Sequence record: NC_027395.1
Strand: one strand, 5' to 3'
DNA: 64,000 nucleotides
Source of the DNA: Escherichia phage vB_EcoP_SU10
The notes below the pieces were generated by a model. That model had not been told where the DNA came from and did not search any database. It saw only the letters and a list, made by a program, of their open reading frames with translations. The translations under genes were made by a program, and so were the position numbers. This document shows positions 20,058 to 30,095 of this stretch, piece after piece; within the stretch, counting starts at the first letter, position 1; the number at the start of each line of letters is the position of its first letter.

Positions 20058-21089
20058 ATGGCATACGGAATATGGACACAACCAGTAGGGCCGGGGCCAG
20101 CAATCCCCGCTCCCTTATTTATTGATAGCGGAAGCACTTTCCCTCAGTTCAAGAATAGTATAAGAGGGAGTTTTAACTTTAATGGGGCTGGGAGATCTTT
20201 CCCTATTAGTGGATGGGATGGCAGTGGTCAGATAGTTATTGTTCCTACCGGTTCTTTATGCTGGCAATGGGAAGTCCCTCCTAACCTAGTTCCTGATGTT
20301 TATTGTGTGAATAATATCTACGTAGAAAACAGTTCCTCTTTTAGAGTTACTCTGAATCAGAACCCCGGCAGGAACCCCTTATTTGACTGTGGGTTCAACG
20401 TATATCAAATATGGCCTAGAGCGGATAGGAATTACGGAATTACCTTTTCTAATACAGCAGACTACTTCTCGATATCTGATAGTGGGGTCGTCGGTCAATG
20501 TATTTGGGCTTGGCAGGGGACCATAAACAATGCCCTTCAGATACCAAATATCGGTGGGTTCAATATGACCAATGCTGTTGTGTTTGCTAATTGGTCTGAT
20601 GGAGGGATAGGACTATCTTATACCTCTGATGACAGGGTTATTCGTGTTTATCAGAACAGACCTTACATAAACGGCAACACTAACGAGGGTGGTTCTGTGT
20701 TTGCTAGAGTTGCAGTATTCTGCAATGGAGCAGGAGTTCCGGAACATAATGGAGGTTTGAATATTTATTCTCCGGGTACCACGCAATGTGTCTTCTCTAC
20801 TAACAGAACACCTTTCACTGTGGATACTTTTATAGGCTCAGGAGGTGGTAACACTGGAATGACATACCCTATGATACCTCTTACCTCTGGAATAGGTGCG
20901 ATAAAAGGCCGAGGCAGTGGATGGAGATATCAGCAAATGAGATCTCACACCATGAGTGGTTCTACGATAGGAACGGGCTATGGAAGGTATTTATTTCAGT
21001 GGAATCAGAATTACGACCTAGGAGCTGATACTGTAGTTAATTTATCAGTTCCTGTAATAAATGCAGCTAAGGTTTTTGCTGGACTATAA
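20058..21089 (+). CDS. Structural protein (343 aa, Gly-rich)
   Basis: Tightly coupled to upstream gene; no motif recognised. Confidence 0.55.
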   Translation: MAYGIWTQPVGPGPAIPAPLFIDSGSTFPQFKNSIRGSFNFNGAGRSFPISGWDGSGQIVIVPTGSLCWQWEVPPNLVPDVYCVNNIYVENSSSFRVTLNQNPGRNPLFDCGFNVYQIWPRADRNYGITFSNTADYFSISDSGVVGQCIWAWQGTINNALQIPNIGGFNMTNAVVFANWSDGGIGLSYTSDDRVIRVYQNRPYINGNTNEGGSVFARVAVFCNGAGVPEHNGGLNIYSPGTTQCVFSTNRTPFTVDTFIGSGGGNTGMTYPMIPLTSGIGAIKGRGSGWRYQQMRSHTMSGSTIGTGYGRYLFQWNQNYDLGADTVVNLSVPVINAAKVFAGL

Positions 21090-21101
21090 CAAGGAGATAT
21101 T

Positions 21102-21884
21102 ATGGCAATTAATATGGGTATTGAAGAACTAGACCCAATGGTTCAACAGGCTTCAAAGAAGTATGGGATTCCTGCTGCTTTGATTCATGCTGTAATCCAA
21201 AGAGAGTCTAGTGGTCGTCCTACAGTAGCCTCTGGAACTGGTCCTGTAGGTTTAATGCAGATCAGTAAAGGGTTGGCTAAAGACTACGGTTACAAACTAG
21301 AAGACAGACTTGACCCAGCAAAGAATATTGATATGGGTGCTCGTTATATTCGAGATAACTTAAAGGCTTTTAATGGTGATGTTAAGAAAGCAATGGTTGG
21401 TTATTCAGAAGGTATTGGTGGAGCTAAGCAAATGTTCGCTGGTAAAAAGGGATTTACACCTCAAGCCCTTGACTCAATGAACAACAAACACTTTCTTCCT
21501 TTCTATGGTGATGCAGCTTCTCAGATTGCTAACCCTGTTGGAGCTTTGCAAGCTGTTCAACCAGTCAACCAGTTTAGTTCTGACTTACTAGACAGAGAGA
21601 AAGCCGCACAAGCTCCAACTCAGGCAGAGATTGCTGCTTCTAAGACAGGTGCTTTAGGCGGAAATCCAGTAGAGTTTTACTCTGATGAAGTGCAGGAAGG
21701 CGAAAACCAGAAACCTCAACAGAACTTTGGTAATGCAGTATTAGGGGTAGCTGCTATGCTTGCTGGTAAACCTCCCACTTCTCAAACAGTTCAGAGGGCA
21801 AGTGCACCACATGCAGCAGGTTCTCAGTACAGTCCACAAACACAAGCAGTGCTCAGACGTTTGGCTAGCATTGGTGTAAAGTAA
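21102..21884 (+). CDS. Lytic transglycosylase (SLT domain) virion protein
   Basis: 260 aa; ALIHAVIQRESSGRP...GLMQI resembles SLT catalytic region. Confidence 0.8.
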   Translation: MAINMGIEELDPMVQQASKKYGIPAALIHAVIQRESSGRPTVASGTGPVGLMQISKGLAKDYGYKLEDRLDPAKNIDMGARYIRDNLKAFNGDVKKAMVGYSEGIGGAKQMFAGKKGFTPQALDSMNNKHFLPFYGDAASQIANPVGALQAVQPVNQFSSDLLDREKAAQAPTQAEIAASKTGALGGNPVEFYSDEVQEGENQKPQQNFGNAVLGVAAMLAGKPPTSQTVQRASAPHAAGSQYSPQTQAVLRRLASIGVK

Positions 21885-21903
21885 TAATCTTTAAGGAGGA
21901 CTT

Positions 21904-22956
21904 ATGTCTTTATTTGGAAAATCAGCTTCTAGCAAAACCACAGTGGCCCCTTCCTCTCAGGTTGATGCCCTGCTGAAGCAGATTGTTGCTAATGCTCAGA
22001 ATATGCAGAACAACGATCCGGGATTCATCTCCCAACAGCTGGCTGGGTTTAATGGCAACCAACAAGGTGCTCTGAACAACTTAGCAGCTTCTACTACTCA
22101 GAAGAAACTAGATGATATGTATACACCACGTACACAGCAAGGGTTGGACCAATTAAACGCTCTTGCCCAGCAGTATCAGAATATTGTTAATGGTGGTGGA
22201 GTAACAGCTGAAGGGGTTAATAACTTTAGTAAAGGTTTGAATAACTCAGCCCTTGCACAAGCTACTATCAAAGCAGCTTCTAACATCTCTCTTGGCAATG
22301 GTTCTGACTCTGGCTCTCTCCGTAGGGCTGCGGCTCAAGGGGCTGCTTTGAATGGCGCTAACACTAACCTGTCTCGTACTATCAGTGGTAAGAATATGGG
22401 TGTAAGTGCTCTGCAACAAGATCAGAACTTCCAGAGAGGGTTGCTTGGTGCTCAGTCTGGTTTAGCTGGACAGAACCTCAATCTTGGTGCTCAAGGCGTT
22501 CAGGCAACTCAACAAGCTATTCAGAATCAGCTGATGGCTGGTAATCTGCAACAGCAACAAGCTCAAGCTCAAGCTGATATTAATTGGCAGAACGCTATTG
22601 GCTCTCAGCAGTATGGGTGGAATCAGCTTAACAACCAACTTAATGTATTAAATAGTGTAAGCCCAATGGCTGGGTATACAATTAAGAATGCTGCTCCGGG
22701 GGTTAATACTGGACAACAGCTCCTAGGTGCTGGTATCACTGGTTTAGGTATTGCAGGTCGTATGGGTGCTTTCTCTCCTAACCAACAGACTCAGAATGCT
22801 TGGAGTTCCTATAACAACTCAGGTGGGCAATCTGGAATGGCTGGTCCTATGATTGGAGGTTCTAATCTTTCTCAACAGAGAGGTCAGTCTAACTGGTTAT
22901 CCACAGCAGGTAGTAATATCTTAGGTGGTGTCTTAGGGGCATTTGGAGCAAACTAA
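21904..22956 (+). CDS. Q/N/G-rich putative internal virion protein (350 aa)
   Basis: AGGAGGA RBS; low-complexity Q/N-rich; paralogous to next gene. Confidence 0.55.
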   Translation: MSLFGKSASSKTTVAPSSQVDALLKQIVANAQNMQNNDPGFISQQLAGFNGNQQGALNNLAASTTQKKLDDMYTPRTQQGLDQLNALAQQYQNIVNGGGVTAEGVNNFSKGLNNSALAQATIKAASNISLGNGSDSGSLRRAAAQGAALNGANTNLSRTISGKNMGVSALQQDQNFQRGLLGAQSGLAGQNLNLGAQGVQATQQAIQNQLMAGNLQQQQAQAQADINWQNAIGSQQYGWNQLNNQLNVLNSVSPMAGYTIKNAAPGVNTGQQLLGAGITGLGIAGRMGAFSPNQQTQNAWSSYNNSGGQSGMAGPMIGGSNLSQQRGQSNWLSTAGSNILGGVLGAFGAN

Positions 22957-22968
22957 AGGAGATTTGAT

Positions 22969-23937
22969 ATGGGACTTTTCGGAGGCGGGGGTAGTAAAAC
23001 TACTTCCCAAATGATTCGCCCTGAATACATTCAACAGTATATTGACCAGCTTAACCAACAGATTGGTAATACTAGTTCAGGAGATTATGTCTATCGTGAC
23101 AATGTAGGGTTTAATAATAATCAGACAGAGGCACTTAATAACCTAGCACAATCTGGCGCTTTGGGCACTCTCTCACAGCAATACATGGATGCAGCAGGTC
23201 AAGGGTTAGGGTATCTGGATAATGCCTATAAAGGCTATCAGAGCCTTTCTGGACAAGGTGGGATTACTGGAGAACAGATTGGTGCTCTCGCTGGTCAACT
23301 GTATGATGATGACGCTGTGCAAGCAGCCATTACAGCTAATAATGAACAGGTTCAACAGAACTTGGCACGTAATGCTCTTCCTCAGTTAGCTCAACAGTTT
23401 GCTGGTCAACAAGGTTCAGGTGCTCGTATGGCTAAGTCTTTTGCCCAAGGCGATGCTCTGAATCAGATGCAGGGCCAAGCAACAGATATCACCAATAGTG
23501 CCTATAACTCGGCTATTAGCCAAGCTGAAAGCATCCTCTCTGGTAATAGACAGAATCAGGCAGCTGCTCTCTCTGGTCTTTCTAATATTGGTTCTAACCT
23601 TTCTAACCTAGGTCAGCAGGGTGCTAATTTGTCTCAACAGCAAATAATGAATCAATGGAATGCAGGGTTGCAGCAACAACAGCAACAACAGAATGAATAT
23701 GATAATGCCTACCAGAATGCTCAGAACGCAGCTAATTGGGGATGGCAAGATATCAATAACCAACTCGGTGCAGCAGGTGTACTTAACGGTGCTCTCGGAC
23801 AAACTACAACTACTAAAACATCTGGTGGCAAAGGTGGTTTCCTTGGTGGAGCTATGAGTGGTGCAGCAGCTGGCTCTTCCTTTGGACCTTGGGGTGCATT
23901 AGCTGGGGGTGTAATCGGTGGGTTGGCTAGTACTTAA
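22969..23937 (+). CDS. Q/N/G-rich putative internal virion protein (322 aa), paralog of preceding gene
   Basis: Shares FNxNQ..ALNNLA.S segment with 21904-22956. Confidence 0.55.
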   Translation: MGLFGGGGSKTTSQMIRPEYIQQYIDQLNQQIGNTSSGDYVYRDNVGFNNNQTEALNNLAQSGALGTLSQQYMDAAGQGLGYLDNAYKGYQSLSGQGGITGEQIGALAGQLYDDDAVQAAITANNEQVQQNLARNALPQLAQQFAGQQGSGARMAKSFAQGDALNQMQGQATDITNSAYNSAISQAESILSGNRQNQAAALSGLSNIGSNLSNLGQQGANLSQQQIMNQWNAGLQQQQQQQNEYDNAYQNAQNAANWGWQDINNQLGAAGVLNGALGQTTTTKTSGGKGGFLGGAMSGAAAGSSFGPWGALAGGVIGGLAST

Positions 23938-23950
23938 TTAGGAGATAAAT

Positions 23951-25606
23951 ATGCAACAGACAACTTACGCTCAGGTCAGAAGTCGTGACCCGAGAAATAC
24001 TTTCTATGGTGTTAATCCGGGAGCGGCTTCGGCCTCTCCTTATATGGCTAGACCAACTCAGACAGCAGATATTTCTATGTATCAACGTCCTGCTGTACCT
24101 TCATCTCTTGCGGGTCTTGTCTCTCAGGCAGAAGAAGATCAGAATGCTATGATTAATCCGGGATTCCAGCAACGTCTTATGGAACAGCAGAATCAAGGAA
24201 CTCCTACCAGTCTTCAGGGTATTGATATTGGAGCACCGGCCCCTGTATCAGCTAATCCTAACCTATCCACTGATCAAGGTTTACAGGATGCTGGGCTTAT
24301 GCCTAGTGACCCTCTTCCGGTAACACCTCCTCCTAAACCACTAGAAGCTGGTCCTATGGAGTTTACTCCTTCTCAGGTGGAACAGGCACAAGGTGTGATT
24401 AATACTCTTGCTCAAGGACAAGACGCTGGTGATGGAATGACTGCTGCTACTCGTGCTAAAGATCAGGAACGCGTCAACAACGATATCTTGCAAGTTGCGA
24501 AAGCTAAAGACCCTTCGGAAGCTTGGAACAAACTACAGAAAGAACCATTCTATCAGAACTCTAGTTTCTACACAGGTTTGATGGGTGTAGGTCTTTCCAT
24601 TATGTCAGGTAAGTCTCCTATTGAAGCTTTCCAGATTGGTCAGGGAATGGCTAATCAAGATGAGACTAAGAAGCAACTGGAAGCTAACCGTGATGCTCTG
24701 ATTGAACAAGGCTTCTCTCAAGACTCGATCGCAGCTGCTATTGCTAACGGAGACCCATCTCTTCTGAAGATGAAAGCTGTAGACCCTGCTCAGAAAGAAG
24801 CTCTGTATGCTGCTCGTGAAGAACGTCAGAATGCTGAATGGGATAGACGTCAACAGATTCAAGAGCAGGCTATGCGTGAACGTGCCGAGGAAACTCGTCG
24901 TGCTGCTGAAAAAAGAACTGATATGAACTTTGAACGTCAGAAAGAGTTGATTGGCTATCGTGATAAAATTAAGGCTGAACGTGCTGAACAAGTTGCTCAA
25001 AGTTTCAACTTCCCCACGAAAGAAATTCGTAACGCTCAGAATACAGCTGAAGGTACTATCGCTAAGCAGTGGGCAGAGAAAGGTGGCCTGTTTAATCAGT
25101 CTAATAAAGACTTGGACTTGGCTGATAAAGCTGTTAAGGACAAAGACTATCAGACGGCCCGTTCTGCTTACATGCAGGCTATCATGAACTCCGCAAGGGC
25201 TGAAATTGGTTCTACTCGTTCTCTCACTGAAGAAGATTTGGGGCATTTTGCAGAAGACCCATCAATCATTATCCGTGTAGGTAACAAGTTTGCTCTGAAG
25301 TCTGGATGGCGTCCTACTGATGCTGCTCTTGCTTATGCTCGTAAACAGGCTAACGTCGGTCACACCTCTGCTATGAAAGGTGTTGCTGATGCTAAGAGAG
25401 ATACTATCAACGCTTATATTGGTTCTGGTATGGATAAGAAGAGAGCTACTGCATTGGTTAACCGTGCAATTCCTTCTGGTGGTTTCTATGACCCTCTTGG
25501 TGCTTTCTCTGAAGAAGCAGAGGAGGCAGTTGGTGGTGCAGCAACTAATCCTAAACTGAACGGTGCTTTATCGGCTGTCGAAGACACTAGCTGGTTCACG
25601 CAATAA
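23951..25606 (+). CDS. Hypothetical virion protein (551 aa)
   Basis: Within structural module; charged helical C-terminal half. Confidence 0.55.
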   Translation: MQQTTYAQVRSRDPRNTFYGVNPGAASASPYMARPTQTADISMYQRPAVPSSLAGLVSQAEEDQNAMINPGFQQRLMEQQNQGTPTSLQGIDIGAPAPVSANPNLSTDQGLQDAGLMPSDPLPVTPPPKPLEAGPMEFTPSQVEQAQGVINTLAQGQDAGDGMTAATRAKDQERVNNDILQVAKAKDPSEAWNKLQKEPFYQNSSFYTGLMGVGLSIMSGKSPIEAFQIGQGMANQDETKKQLEANRDALIEQGFSQDSIAAAIANGDPSLLKMKAVDPAQKEALYAAREERQNAEWDRRQQIQEQAMRERAEETRRAAEKRTDMNFERQKELIGYRDKIKAERAEQVAQSFNFPTKEIRNAQNTAEGTIAKQWAEKGGLFNQSNKDLDLADKAVKDKDYQTARSAYMQAIMNSARAEIGSTRSLTEEDLGHFAEDPSIIIRVGNKFALKSGWRPTDAALAYARKQANVGHTSAMKGVADAKRDTINAYIGSGMDKKRATALVNRAIPSGGFYDPLGAFSEEAEEAVGGAATNPKLNGALSAVEDTSWFTQ

Positions 25607-25626
25607 GACCTAAGTCCTGCCTTCTA

Positions 25627-25635
25627 TAATGTATA
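25627..25635 (+). promoter_or_regulatory. TAATGTATA promoter-like element
   Basis: Exact 9-mer 38 nt upstream of ATG 25674. Confidence 0.5.
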
Positions 25636-25673
25636 TAGGGGGTAGGACATTTTTATTTATAAAAGGAGACGTT

Positions 25674-28600
25674 ATGGCTAACATTAAACCGTGGGAAGAA
25701 GCTTCCAAAGCTCCTGCGTATCTGAATGCCTCTCCGGAGCAACAAGCTCAAATGAGAGAACAATATAAGGCAGCAGGTGGCTCTATTCCTGAGGAACAAC
25801 CAGTAGCACAACCACAACAAGAAGAACGTGGTGCTATAGGCGAGTTTGCTCAAGGTGTGTCAAATGCTCTTCAATCTGGTGGTGCAAATATTGCAGCTAG
25901 TGCTGCTAAAGGTATTGGTGGTTTAGTTGAGATTGGTGAGAATCTAGCTGGAGCACAGACTAGTTATGGTAAGCGTATCCAAGAGAACTCTCAGAACCTT
26001 CTGAAAGAACGTATGGATAAGATTGAGGATGGGATTGGCAAAACTGTTGGTCAGTATGCTGGCGTTGCTGGTGATATTGGTATGACTGTTGCTAACCCAT
26101 TGGCTGCTGCTGCTATCATCGCAGGTCGTGAGACGGGTCGTGCATATGCAGACCAAACCCCTGAAGAGGGAGAAGATAAGTCTATTCTAGATGCAGCCTT
26201 AGTTGGTGGTGCTAACTATGCGGCCCAGAGAATCCTTCCGGGTGCTGTCGGCACAGCTGAGTCCACACTTGGACGTATTGGTCAGAACGTTGCCAGTAAC
26301 GCAGTGGCTGGTGCTAAAGGTGGTGCTCTTGTTGGTGCTGCTGAAGTTCAGAACAAGTATGGGGATGACAATGATCTAGCTAAGACATTGGAAGGTGTTA
26401 TCGAAGAGGGGGCTATGGGTGCTGCATTTGGTGGTGCAGTTGGTGGGGTTCATGGTTTGATTAGCCGTCCGGATTCTGTTGTTTTCAAGAATACTCCAGA
26501 GTATGCGAAGACTGATATTGCTGCTGATGACGAACTGATTCGTAGTGCTAAGAATGTTGATGAACTGAAAGAGGCTTACTCTAAAGCTGAAACTGCTAAC
26601 GCTGCTTCTGCTCTGAACCTCCTCGATGAGAATGGGTTCCGTATTACAGATGCTGTTGCTGTAGATTCTCCTGCTGCTCAGCGTATTCTTAACACTGACC
26701 AAGCTCGTGCTGAGAAAGCTGCTTCTGTTCAGAAAGAACACTCCAACATTCCGGGCCTTAATCCTTTAGCTTCTCCTGCTAAGACTCGTGGTAAAGCTTT
26801 CGCTGATAACGAGCACAACCAGAAACAGGCTGTTGCTATGAAGGATGCGATGGCTGACTATACCAAGGATAACACTAAAGCTCTTACAGATGTTTTAGAT
26901 AACCTAGACCGTGAATTAACCTCTCTCCGAGCTTCTGGTGATTTTACTGGTAGTCCGATTGATATTAAGAATCGCACACAAGCTGACCGTGACTTCATTG
27001 ATGCTTACAAGACTTTCTACAATGAAGCAAATCGATTCAAAGCTCGTGAAGGTGAAGACTTCAATAACTTTGTAGAGAAAGCTGCTGAACTACAGAAGAT
27101 GGCTGATAATGTTTCTCCAGAGATGAAGAAAGCTATTGGCGGGTTGAAGAAACTGAAGGGTATGCCTGAAGGTTTTAATCCTATCCAAGATGCTTACACT
27201 CTGAACAATACAGCTAAATTTATGAGTAACCAAGATCGCGGTTGGACTTCCCTGACTGATGATGGTTTCCGTGAAGCTTCTTCTCCTAGCCTGGTAATGA
27301 ACACTCTCGGTGCTGCTAAGTATGCTCTGAATCGCTTCTCTTCTCAGCGTGCTCGTTCTCAACGTGTTAAGCAACAAGAGTCTAACAGTGAAGCTATCCG
27401 CTCTCTGGCTCGTGGTGATTTGGAAGTTGCTCGTGCTAAATCTACTGCTAATGAAGCTCGTGCTAAGATGGAAGAAGAACCAGCTGTTGATGACATTAAA
27501 TTTAAGACGCAAAATGATGTAGAAACCGAACCGGTTCGGGAGCCTTCTTCTAGTACTGTGACGGAAGAAAATCTTCCTTCTTCTGCTCCTCAAGAAACCC
27601 CTCTTACAGCTCGTGATTTAGTTGCGCAAAGACGTGCTATCCGTCAGGCTGAACAGCGTCGCGCTGAAGAAGAGGCAGCTGCTGCTCAAGAAGTTCCGGT
27701 TGAACAAGCTCCACAGGCTGAACCTCTCCCTGCTCGTAATCCTTTAGAGGAACGTCGTGCAATGGAACAGCAACGTGCTCAAGAAGAGGCCTCACAAGCT
27801 CCAGAACCAACCGTAGAGGAACCAACGGTCAAAGCTGAGCCATTACCTGCCCGTGCTCCTAAAGCTCCTAAGGAAGCTGTACAGGACGTTAAACCGGCAA
27901 GTGGTGTAGAACGTTTAGCTGCTATGTCTAGTGCTGCTCGTCAGGCTACTAAAGATCGTGCAGAACGCTTTGCTCGTTCTCTGTATTCTAAGGCTGCTAA
28001 GGCTAAAGCTACTGCTGAAAACTTCTTGGCTTATAAGGGCGATCCTAAGGAATTGATGCGTCGTATTCGTCAGGAAGATAATGCTATCAACACTGAACGT
28101 CATGAAGAAATGGCTCGTAACCAGCTGGCTTCTCAGCAAGGTATTGCTACTGCTAAGAACAACACTGTACGAACTAGTTTTGCTGAATGGGTTAAGGAAC
28201 GTGGTCTGCCAGAAGACATTGCTACTAAGGCATTACGTGCTGAAGAGAAAGGTTTAGGTGGGAACGTAACTAACTTGGATAGTCTGAAACGTCGTGCTGA
28301 AAGGTTGTATCAGAAGCAGCGTGAGGATGAGTTTGATAGATTATATCAACAAGCTCTAGAAGAGAACAAAGCTTTCGATAAGAAGGATGCTCCTAAACTG
28401 GTTGACCAGAAGAAAGAGCTTCAGTCTGAGATTGATGCTTTGATTGATTCAGAACCTTTACGTCCTGCTCAGAAAGATGCTATGCGTAAGCTGATGAATG
28501 ATTTTGTAGATGGGAAGTTTAAATCTTCAGAGAAGGCTGGTAGGGAAGAGGCTTTGGAAGTTGGTCAGATGAAGGATATTTGGGATGGGTTTATTAACAC

Positions 28601-30095
28601 CTATAACAGAGAAGTAAATGCCTTCAACAAAGCTAACAAGAACTCTCAGTACGAAGCTGCTGCTAAGCATTTACAGGCTCGTGAAGAACGTCTTGCTACC
28701 CTCAGGAAAAAGGCTCAGGCTCGTTCGGATGCTAAGGCTGCTGTTGAGAATGAACGTAAAACTCTAGAGGCTATTGCAGCTCAGAAGAGTGAGATTGAGA
28801 AGATGATGGAAGGTTTACCTAAACCTGTTCGTGAGGCTCAGGAATCTCGTACTCTGAAACAGTTGGCTGCTCACCACGATAAGAACTCTCCAGTTCCTCC
28901 AGAGAAGTTCCGTAGTTATATTGAACGTATCCACAATGCCGAGTCAGATTACCTTGATCGTCAGCGTCGTTTAACTGATGCAGAGGAAGATGCTCGTCAG
29001 GCTAAGTGGAACAAGATGTATGAGCAAGCGGAAGAGATGAACCGTAAGTTTGATGTGGACAAGAGAGTTAAGCGCAGTGAAGAGCTTAAAGCGGCCCAAG
29101 AGCGTGAGAATGATCTTATGGCAGTACAACGTCAACGTGATGACATTCATCGCCGCCTGATGCGTACTATGGAAGATAAGGGCATATCTAGAGAGGATGC
29201 TGAAGCGTTTGCCGGCTCCTATATGGATAACCGTTATGCACTTCTTGAGAAACCTATGACTCCGACTGAACATCAGAATGCTCGTTCTCGTATCGAAGCT
29301 GATGTTGAGAAATTCGCTAAGAAGTATGAATCAATGACTCCTATTGAGAAAGAGATTGTTAAGGTTACTGGAGATACTGAAGGTAAGCTTGATAACTTGG
29401 ATGCGGATACTAGGAAGGCTATTGAGGAGGCTCAGAAGGTTGACTCTGATATTAAGAAACTGCAAGAGGAAGAATTGGAGATGGAGAAGATTCGTTCTGC
29501 TCTGCCTGATGATGAAAAATCTCAAGCAAATTCTGATATCTTGGAAAGCATTAAACAACAGGAAGAGGTCTTTGCTGATAAAGTAGAGAAAGCTTTCTTG
29601 AGTGGGAAAAGCTTGGATGAGTTGGCTAGTGTGGCTGAAGTTTTAGACAGGGTTCATGGTGCAGATAAGGCTGGTAACAACCGTCGCTTTGTACGTGCAT
29701 TGCAGACTGCTGCTGAAAACAAGAAGAAGTATGGTGATAATCCAGTAGCTTGGTTTAGTGCTGATGATTACTCTGCCATTGCTAAACTTGGTGCTTCTTC
29801 CGCAGGTGGTAACAAATCCAGAGCACTGGAGAAGATCTTTGGTTCTACAGCTGAACAGGCTAAGAGTAAGTTGCTTGGTAGGGATGATGTAGCGAAGATG
29901 AGACGTGTGATTGAAGAGAACCCTGATATTAAGATTCCTTCTTACAAGACAACGAATCGTACTGAGTACTTGCAATTCTTGGAGAAGTTTAATGACGAAG
30001 GGAAGCCGAAGATTAAACGTGGCTCATTGTCAGAGAAGCTTGAACGAAGTAAGCGTCAATCGAGACTCCGTGTAAGAGTTCGACCTAAGGAGTGA
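25674..30095 (+). CDS. Very large virion protein (1473 aa), candidate internal/ejection protein
   Basis: AAGGAG RBS before ATG 25674; A/E/K/R-rich with long helical segments; last gene of + module. Confidence 0.6.
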   Translation: MANIKPWEEASKAPAYLNASPEQQAQMREQYKAAGGSIPEEQPVAQPQQEERGAIGEFAQGVSNALQSGGANIAASAAKGIGGLVEIGENLAGAQTSYGKRIQENSQNLLKERMDKIEDGIGKTVGQYAGVAGDIGMTVANPLAAAAIIAGRETGRAYADQTPEEGEDKSILDAALVGGANYAAQRILPGAVGTAESTLGRIGQNVASNAVAGAKGGALVGAAEVQNKYGDDNDLAKTLEGVIEEGAMGAAFGGAVGGVHGLISRPDSVVFKNTPEYAKTDIAADDELIRSAKNVDELKEAYSKAETANAASALNLLDENGFRITDAVAVDSPAAQRILNTDQARAEKAASVQKEHSNIPGLNPLASPAKTRGKAFADNEHNQKQAVAMKDAMADYTKDNTKALTDVLDNLDRELTSLRASGDFTGSPIDIKNRTQADRDFIDAYKTFYNEANRFKAREGEDFNNFVEKAAELQKMADNVSPEMKKAIGGLKKLKGMPEGFNPIQDAYTLNNTAKFMSNQDRGWTSLTDDGFREASSPSLVMNTLGAAKYALNRFSSQRARSQRVKQQESNSEAIRSLARGDLEVARAKSTANEARAKMEEEPAVDDIKFKTQNDVETEPVREPSSSTVTEENLPSSAPQETPLTARDLVAQRRAIRQAEQRRAEEEAAAAQEVPVEQAPQAEPLPARNPLEERRAMEQQRAQEEASQAPEPTVEEPTVKAEPLPARAPKAPKEAVQDVKPASGVERLAAMSSAARQATKDRAERFARSLYSKAAKAKATAENFLAYKGDPKELMRRIRQEDNAINTERHEEMARNQLASQQGIATAKNNTVRTSFAEWVKERGLPEDIATKALRAEEKGLGGNVTNLDSLKRRAERLYQKQREDEFDRLYQQALEENKAFDKKDAPKLVDQKKELQSEIDALIDSEPLRPAQKDAMRKLMNDFVDGKFKSSEKAGREEALEVGQMKDIWDGFINTYNREVNAFNKANKNSQYEAAAKHLQAREERLATLRKKAQARSDAKAAVENERKTLEAIAAQKSEIEKMMEGLPKPVREAQESRTLKQLAAHHDKNSPVPPEKFRSYIERIHNAESDYLDRQRRLTDAEEDARQAKWNKMYEQAEEMNRKFDVDKRVKRSEELKAAQERENDLMAVQRQRDDIHRRLMRTMEDKGISREDAEAFAGSYMDNRYALLEKPMTPTEHQNARSRIEADVEKFAKKYESMTPIEKEIVKVTGDTEGKLDNLDADTRKAIEEAQKVDSDIKKLQEEELEMEKIRSALPDDEKSQANSDILESIKQQEEVFADKVEKAFLSGKSLDELASVAEVLDRVHGADKAGNNRRFVRALQTAAENKKKYGDNPVAWFSADDYSAIAKLGASSAGGNKSRALEKIFGSTAEQAKSKLLGRDDVAKMRRVIEENPDIKIPSYKTTNRTEYLQFLEKFNDEGKPKIKRGSLSEKLERSKRQSRLRVRVRPKE

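Follow-up and report, generated by a model that had tools for sequence, protein, structure and literature searches.

Two adjacent genes for glutamine-, asparagine- and glycine-rich proteins lie at positions 21904-23937 of the 64,000-nucleotide stretch of Escherichia phage vB_EcoP_SU10 (sequence record NC_027395.1; the whole stretch is called the window here). We label them A (open reading frame, ORF, 21904-22956; 350 amino acids, aa) and B (ORF 22969-23937; 322 aa). An earlier sequence-only reading had placed two such ORFs ahead of a 551-aa and a 1473-aa protein, and both are present at exactly these coordinates on the plus strand, within a tight co-directional block in the order SLT-A-B-551-1473. 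The SLT gene, encoding a lytic transglycosylase, directly precedes A and was absent from that reading, while the 551-aa ORF and then the large ORF follow B as described (Table 1).

The role of A and B as ejection proteins is already published and is in public annotation. What is new here is the formal paralogy of the two, a probable outer-membrane hairpin in B like that of gp7 of phage P22, and a conserved asymmetry of the pair, all of which are refinements and not a new kind of system. In the literature on Kuravirus ejection proteins we found no comment on paralogy, pair asymmetry, composition or a gp7-like C-terminus.

A megablast search with positions 21000-26000 retrieved 93 phage records, nearly all of them Escherichia or Shigella phages of the genus Kuravirus, with nucleotide identity of up to 97.4% (PGN6866) and of 96.3% to phiEco32; the A-B pair is carried by 97 phage records. 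Residues 1-227 of B are 100% identical to phiEco32 gp24, which the original 2008 record calls a "putative DNA injection protein", while RefSeq now names both gp23 and gp24 "DNA ejection protein". The PHROG family of that name, phrog_4287, matches both proteins at full length (A, E 9.5e-118, residues 1-350; B, E 3.5e-109, residues 1-310).

The computed masses of the five window ORFs are 27.5, 35.9, 33.3, 59.9 and 162.9 kDa, and the SU10 proteins detected in phage preparations by mass spectrometry (MS) are gp20 (27.5 kDa), gp21 (35.9 kDa), gp22 (33.3 kDa), gp23 (60 kDa) and gp24 (163 kDa) (PMC4281155). Lengths of 260, 350, 322 and 1473 aa agree with gp20, gp21, gp22 and gp24, and the 551-aa ORF is gp23, listed there as 515 aa. 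By MS and cryo-electron microscopy, gp20-24 are in the virion and are gone after genome release (PMC9509320), and Supplementary Table 1 of the same study lists ORF 21 (350 residues) and ORF 22 (322 residues) as virion proteins detected by MS, without a copy number. The proposal that A and B belong to a set of internal or ejection proteins is therefore supported, although it is not new, because virion presence was already shown experimentally for the SU10 proteins (PMC4281155, PMC9509320); far from being absent from virions, gp21 and gp22 were detected in them by MS. As it was first stated, the finding restates the published biology of SU10 gp20-24.

Two paralogs in a broad family

In BLASTP, a stretch of 275 residues aligns between A and B (identity 32%, E 1e-13). 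Since both proteins are compositionally biased, Smith-Waterman scores were compared with those of 1000-2000 composition-preserving shuffles, and not one shuffle matched the real score (z was 14 over the full length, 13 over residues 1-130 and 10 over the middle). Because z values of 10-14 remain over such shuffles, A and B are homologs and do not merely share a composition. The paralogy had been claimed from N-terminal segments, which we locate at residues 49-63 of A (FNGNQQGALNNLAAS) and 48-62 of B (FNNNQTEALNNLAQS); it is borne out, and the likeness extends past the N-terminus.

The two paralogs differ in charge, as A is basic (pI 9.9, net charge +7) and B acidic (pI 4.3, net charge -8). They share a reading frame, with TAA plus 12 nucleotides between them (22954-22971); read-through of the A stop codon into an A-B fusion is conceivable, and no sign of such a fusion was seen.

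A search for related loci in viral contigs gave 8 close relatives. The SU10-type loci compared were the window, phiEco32, five IMG/VR contigs and three metagenome or genome contigs (B 44-55% identical), and the adjacent A-B pair is found in the same order in every one of them, down to approx. 40% identity. Identity between the A and the B of one genome is 29-39%, against 37-44% among A orthologs and 44-55% among B orthologs, and therefore the duplication predates the split of the lineages. From the same ortholog values, A evolves somewhat faster than B. Within the coliphage group A carries a net charge of +5 to +10, and in the most remote loci one of -1 to +1; for B the range is -2 to -10, and A is more positive than B in every genome examined. 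The C-termini differ as well: B has a nearly invariant hairpin, while A-type proteins conserve the motif LNNKLNVLNxxSPMAGYT (before the helix at residues 271-292 of A also written LNxLNVLNSVSPMAGYT), then one glycine-zipper helix (QQLLGAGITGLGIAGRLGAF) and then a variable aromatic and glycine-rich tail. That both copies are kept, each with its own conserved C-terminus and with a steady difference in charge, disfavours redundancy and suggests co-assembly. A would be the more derived paralog and most likely assembles together with B instead of serving as a second copy of it.

One of the distant loci (L005; GCA_023211535.1, contig DAHCAP010000002.1, 204317-225285) lies mid-way in a 389-kb E. coli contig and holds the whole module, i.e., an SU10-type capsid, terminase, portal, SLT, A, B (44% identical), a 498-aa and a 1113-aa protein. 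A similar module is found in Enterobacter. The E. coli module may come from a chimeric assembly, or it may be related to the strictly lytic Kuraviruses and itself be prophage-like.

The phrog_4287-type family of A and B is broad. A profile built from B-type and A-type sequences (A1) was run against 1.84 billion proteins and, at E<=1e-3, matched 433 cluster representatives (clustering at 50% identity). The late-operon position, after the tail genes and SLT and before proteins of approx. 500 aa and more than 1000 aa, recurs in the window, in phiEco32, and in L005 and two further distant relatives (L006 and L007), all three with an SU10-type capsid and portal. Recurrent features of the family are an N-terminal Met-Gly-(Leu-Phe)-Gly-Gly (MGLFGG) and a body rich in glutamine and asparagine (Q/N) and poor in charge, and many members have a glycine-rich C-terminus with G-P-W-G-A. 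No Pfam family matched A or B. A sequence search of the PDB with A, B, the profiles A1 and A3 and P22 gp7 gave nothing significant, in a copy of the PDB without P22 gp7. Comparison of profiles with P22 gp20, P22 gp16, T7 gp14, T7 gp15 and T7 gp16 gave no signal. Tape-measure-like, tail-fibre and lysis-protein readings were dropped, their sole hints being weak phrog_167 matches of the glycine-rich ends of distant members.

The C-terminal hairpin of B and P22 gp7

The C-terminus of B is a glycine-zipper hairpin (GGFLGGAMSGAAAGSSFGPWGALAGGVIGG). Where family members only 19-33% identical are aligned, the invariant columns are seven, and all of them are C-terminal, including P-W-G (…GALGGAxSGAxxGSxFGPWGAxIGGxxGxLGG). 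The last 49 residues of B gave sub-threshold Pfam matches (8.5-14.7 bits against cut-offs of 24-29 bits) to Bacteriocin_IIc (PF10439), the glycine zipper 2TM and the YMGG zipper (PF05433, PF13441, PF13488), a likeness at the level of the motif only. A lacks the hairpin with the PWGA turn and has a degenerate form of it, whose turn holds 7 extra residues.

The 229-aa P22 gp7 is rich in glutamine, asparagine, glycine and alanine and ends in …SGAIAGAGLAKLIGSSTPWGAAIGGGIGLLGSLF. With a motif-selected profile, hhalign aligned the B-type C-terminus with the gp7 family over 34 columns (probability 95.8%, E 7.9e-9), while reversed-sequence controls of the run reached E 0.024-0.035. With this profile, HMMER found gp7 (E 1.1e-5), and in a search of 218 ORFs gp7 (E 2.4e-5) was the sole P22 ORF to be matched. 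In shuffle tests, B against gp7 gave z=5.3 (1/1000 shuffles) and the C-termini alone gave z=3.95. HMMER scores of gp7 against the Kuravirus-type family without bias correction (E approx. 1e-12 to 1e-15) were discarded as compositional artefacts. To judge from these comparisons, the hairpin of B is probably homologous to that of gp7. The PHROG assignments differ, as P22 gp7 matches phrog_598 only and A and B match phrog_4287 only.

At the other end, gp7 without its 20-residue propeptide (gp7*) begins with KGGKGGADKSAKY…, and MAFFT aligns residues 21-45 with the family start MG(G)GGGxK/TTS…, which hints that the mature N-termini of gp7* and of the Kuravirus-type family may correspond.

A preprint of September 2026 on infecting P22 in situ shows gp7* as a dodecamer docked on the hexameric gp10 hub, in which every subunit folds back and gives two helices to a 24-helix bundle, and in which hydrogen bonds of Gln, Asn and Tyr form an extensive network between the subunits (bioRxiv 10.64898/2026.09.03.749273). 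Adjacent subunits take two conformations, gp7-o and gp7-i, which reconciles 12-fold with 6-fold symmetry; through its V-shaped hydrophobic C-terminus (approx. residues 191-229) each subunit contributes two helices to the outer membrane, and gp20 then lines and lengthens the channel (bioRxiv 10.64898/2026.09.03.749273).

The fold of B was predicted with AlphaFold2 (AF2) from 97 family sequences, with a mean predicted local distance difference test (pLDDT) score of 69.6 and values of 83-94 over residues 101-190. In this monomer model, helices are predicted at residues 114-143, 150-209 and 215-275, giving a long antiparallel hairpin of approx. 9 nm. A model from a 21-sequence alignment was unusable (pLDDT 41.7).

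A proposed conduit and a possible role of glutamine and asparagine

A and B are two of five proteins that are packed in the head and released with the genome, as was shown for SU10. We consider it probable that the five build a DNA conduit across the E. coli envelope and that A and B form its proximal part; docking, bundling and insertion are inferred by analogy, as follows. A and B would leave the head unfolded via the portal, the tail and the opened nozzle and would refold as long antiparallel helical hairpins, which could bundle into a ring held largely by hydrogen bonds between Gln and Asn side chains; such bundling would be the reason for the Q/N richness and for the few charged residues. 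The ring would dock on the hexameric nozzle and put its glycine-zipper ends into the outer membrane, a role like that of P22 gp7 and the T7 gp14 class, and B would insert its invariant C-terminal V hairpin there as gp7* does. The rest of the channel would come from the 551-aa and 1473-aa proteins, and the cut in the peptidoglycan from the SLT enzyme. B would work like gp7, yet it is no demonstrable member of the gp7 Pfam family.

Several points weigh against this account. The strong hhalign profile was built from 78 family members selected for the motif P-[WYF]-[GA]-[AST], and the unselected family alignment matched the gp7 alignment over the C-terminal 33 columns only (probability 22%, E 9e-4). 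Profile A1 was negative against P22 gp7 after HMMER bias correction and found nothing in P22, the gp7 family of Pfam (PF25688) matched neither A nor B even at E<=10, and A against gp7 was no different from shuffles (z=0). Glycine zippers are short and of low complexity, so that the hairpins of B and gp7 may have converged; outside the C-terminal approx. 34 residues, homology of B with gp7 is not demonstrable, and the rest of the protein would be at most a very remote relative. The AF2 confidence is low at the C-terminus of B (pLDDT 40-50), and Foldseek with the B model against the PDB returned generic helical hairpins only (best E 0.18), namely chemoreceptor, colicin and SMC coiled coils, with uncharacterised phage proteins of low template-modelling (TM) score in BFVD. 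In SU10, no density could be assigned to gp20-24 (PMC9509320). The conservation and the charge asymmetry of the pair may point to a hetero-assembly of A with B.

To hypothesize on why there are two genes, A and B could hard-wire the adaptation of symmetry, with six A and six B subunits alternating in a dodecameric ring, or in two concentric layers. This idea is tentative. In P22, pairs of gp7* in two conformations give C6 symmetry on the hub, and the SU10 tail likewise has a 12-mer of portal and adaptor on a 6-fold nozzle (PMC9509320); A and B are always adjacent and retained, A is always the more positive, and the conserved C-termini differ. On the other side, the charges of the pair draw closer in the loci L012, L014 and L015, the most distant ones (approx. 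0 for A and -2 to -5 for B), and single-copy relatives (LUZ24 gp53 and the 410-aa protein of Grimontviridae) manage without a second paralog. The more specific form, in which the ejectosome ring next to the outer membrane is, in Kuraviruses and SU10-type relatives, an A/B hetero-oligomer that fixes genetically the two conformations of P22 gp7, with the Q/N residues as a polar-zipper code by which the ejected, unfolded chains would find partner and register outside the cell, is speculative and somewhat more doubtful. If it were true, two genes would fix what P22 gp7 does via two conformers, matching a 12-mer to a 6-fold hub.

It seems unlikely that A and B are redundant duplicates, or that they act independently at different layers of the envelope (e.g., B at the outer membrane and A at some other site) with no joint assembly. 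The identity of A and B of only approx. 32%, their different C-termini and the somewhat faster evolution of A would fit such a division, while simple redundancy does not agree with the retention of both copies and of their order throughout the SU10-type genomes sampled, even at approx. 40% identity.

The sequence-only reading had also called the Q/N-rich composition prion-like and unusual. The share of Q+N is 26.3% in A and 25.2% in B, with 13.7% and 15.5% glycine and 4.6% and 3.1% Lys+Arg, and the two proteins are the top two in Q+N among the 42 window ORFs of at least 150 aa (mean 10.3%, standard deviation 4.2). The census criterion of Michelitsch and Weissman (2000) reportedly asks for at least 30 Q/N in 80 residues. 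By this measure A (35, from residue 171) and B (34, from residue 195) pass and P22 gp7 (24) fails. The richness is thus real and extreme in this genome, but it is also a trait of the whole family (Q+N 8-27%, mostly 12-27%; 18% in P22 gp7), and the Q/N-rich stretches of B are continuous predicted helices (residues 150-209 and 215-275) and not a disordered, low-complexity domain. Within the Q/N region there are conserved motifs, Y-x-N-A...W-Q-D-I-x-N-x-L and LNNKLNVLN. In classic prion domains the composition only is conserved. "Prion-like" therefore fits the composition of A and B and nothing further, and this composition is better explained by solubility and foldability without a hydrophobic core, by unfolded passage through a narrow channel and by the polar zipping of a helical bundle. 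That the Q/N regions are prion-like or amyloid domains, for self-templating assembly after ejection or for condensation of DNA or protein in the head, is highly improbable, since against the census counts and the very low charge content stand the long predicted helices with family-conserved positions and the ordered bundle of P22 gp7*, in which the Q/N side chains make defined hydrogen bonds between helices (bioRxiv 10.64898/2026.09.03.749273).

What these results offer is a lead for structural work. The gp7-like hairpin predicts which protein would enter the outer membrane. To our knowledge, no structure resolves the ejection proteins of a prolate podovirus. The conserved, charge-asymmetric pair is a testable idea of how a 12-fold channel might be fitted to a 6-fold nozzle.

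The cassette, its neighbours and known systems

The features of the five-gene cassette are collected in Table 1. Counted from its first ATG, the large ORF has 1488 aa, and from 25674, the start annotated in phiEco32, it has 1473 aa; the latter start is favoured because the terminator-like hairpin before it covers the in-frame upstream ATG at 25629. This hairpin could act as an attenuator of transcription, which would keep the copy number of the giant protein below that of the channel proteins encoded upstream.

Table 1. Genes and sequence features of the ejection cassette (window positions)
Feature	Position	Strand	Basis
SLT lytic transglycosylase, 260 aa (phiEco32 gp22 / SU10 gp20), cassette gene 1	21102-21884	+	Pfam SLT E 1.1e-23; phrog_12507; 27.5 kDa
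Shine-Dalgarno-like AAGGAGG upstream of A	21893-21899	+	direct sequence reading
Paralog A, 350 aa (phiEco32 gp23 / SU10 gp21)	21904-22956	+	ORF; phrog_4287; 35.9 kDa
Glycine-zipper hydrophobic helix, A residues 271-292 (QQLLGAGITGLGIAGRMGAFSP)	22714-22779	+	A-type alignment (22 sequences); hydropathy
Shine-Dalgarno-like AAGGAG for B, overlapping the A stop codon	22956-22961	+	direct sequence reading
Paralog B, 322 aa (phiEco32 gp24 / SU10 gp22 'DNA injection protein')	22969-23937	+	ORF; phrog_4287; 33.3 kDa
Glycine-zipper / GPWGA turn / glycine-zipper hairpin, B residues 288-322 (KGGFLGGAMSGAAAGSSFGPWGALAGGVIGGLAST)	23830-23934	+	alignment; hhalign vs P22 gp7 family
Ejection protein, 551 aa (phiEco32 gp25 / SU10 gp23)	23951-25606	+	phrog_12130; 59.9 kDa; SU10 virion/ejection data
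Terminator-like hairpin between the 551-aa and 1473-aa genes	25614-25658	+	15-bp stem, 5-nt loop, then T-run ATTTTTATTT
Charged helical ejection protein, 1473 aa (phiEco32 gp26 / SU10 gp24)	25674-30095	+	phrog_14629; 162.9 kDa; SU10 data

By its position and size, the 551-aa protein is a candidate component of the periplasmic tunnel. A sequence search of the PDB with it and with the 1473-aa protein found no relative. At approx. residues 205-226, the 551-aa protein has one moderately hydrophobic, glycine-rich segment (FYTGLMGVGLSIMSGKSPIEAF), reminiscent of the one helix with which P22 gp20 takes part in the outer-membrane gp7-gp20 pore.

Just upstream of the SLT gene, ORF 20058-21089 (343 aa; SU10 ORF 19) matches Pfam DUF6453 and a PHROG 'membrane protein' and has 6 Cys and 10 Trp; it lies inside the structural operon, yet Supplementary Table 1 of the SU10 study gives it as not in the virion and undetected by MS. 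Further downstream, the sign of the GC skew switches near 30 kb, where the late operon of the plus strand meets genes of the minus strand, which in the phiEco32 annotation are HNH endonucleases, an exonuclease, a dNMP kinase and a sigma factor. ARAGORN found no tRNA or tmRNA genes in the window (1-64000).

Among known systems, the closest are SU10 gp21 and gp22 (phiEco32 gp23 and gp24), which have the same lengths, masses and gene order as A and B, with approx. 95-97% nucleotide identity to phiEco32, and which show no material difference from them.

Two more distant relatives belong to the same family by hidden Markov model (HMM) comparison and hold the equivalent late-operon position. LUZ24 gp53 of a Pseudomonas phage (E 7e-27) is annotated as a particle protein and has a glycine-zipper hairpin at its end; unlike the Kuravirus pair, it is a single copy, and it has FGGPAGA where B-type proteins have FGPWGA. 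The 410-aa 'DNA injection protein' of Grimontviridae (Cronobacter A24, E 1e-94; Proteus P59, E 3e-83) is also a single copy, and it has a basic Lys/Arg tail and no glycine-zipper end.

The class of T7 gp14 and DEV gp73 is the proposed first, small, membrane-inserting component of the podovirus ejectosome (PMC8954989, PMC11445570). The predicted membrane segments differ in type from those of A and B, and there is no detectable sequence similarity, as T7 gp14 (phrog_805) against the family gave an hhalign probability of 0.1%, z=0.4 over shuffles and no HMM match.

In Salmonella phage P22, gp7 makes up the channel outside the cell and in the outer membrane. Like B, it is a small, low-charge, helical ejection protein rich in glutamine, asparagine, glycine and alanine, with its gene just upstream of those for larger channel proteins. 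Unlike B, it has 229 aa, and a 20-residue N-terminal propeptide is cleaved by the host OpdA (record note). The number of genes also differs, with one in P22 and two in Kuraviruses, where A is without the PWGA turn. What P22 gp7 and B share is the C-terminal arrangement of glycine zipper, S-x-x-PWGA and glycine zipper, which in P22 is the V hairpin in the outer membrane.

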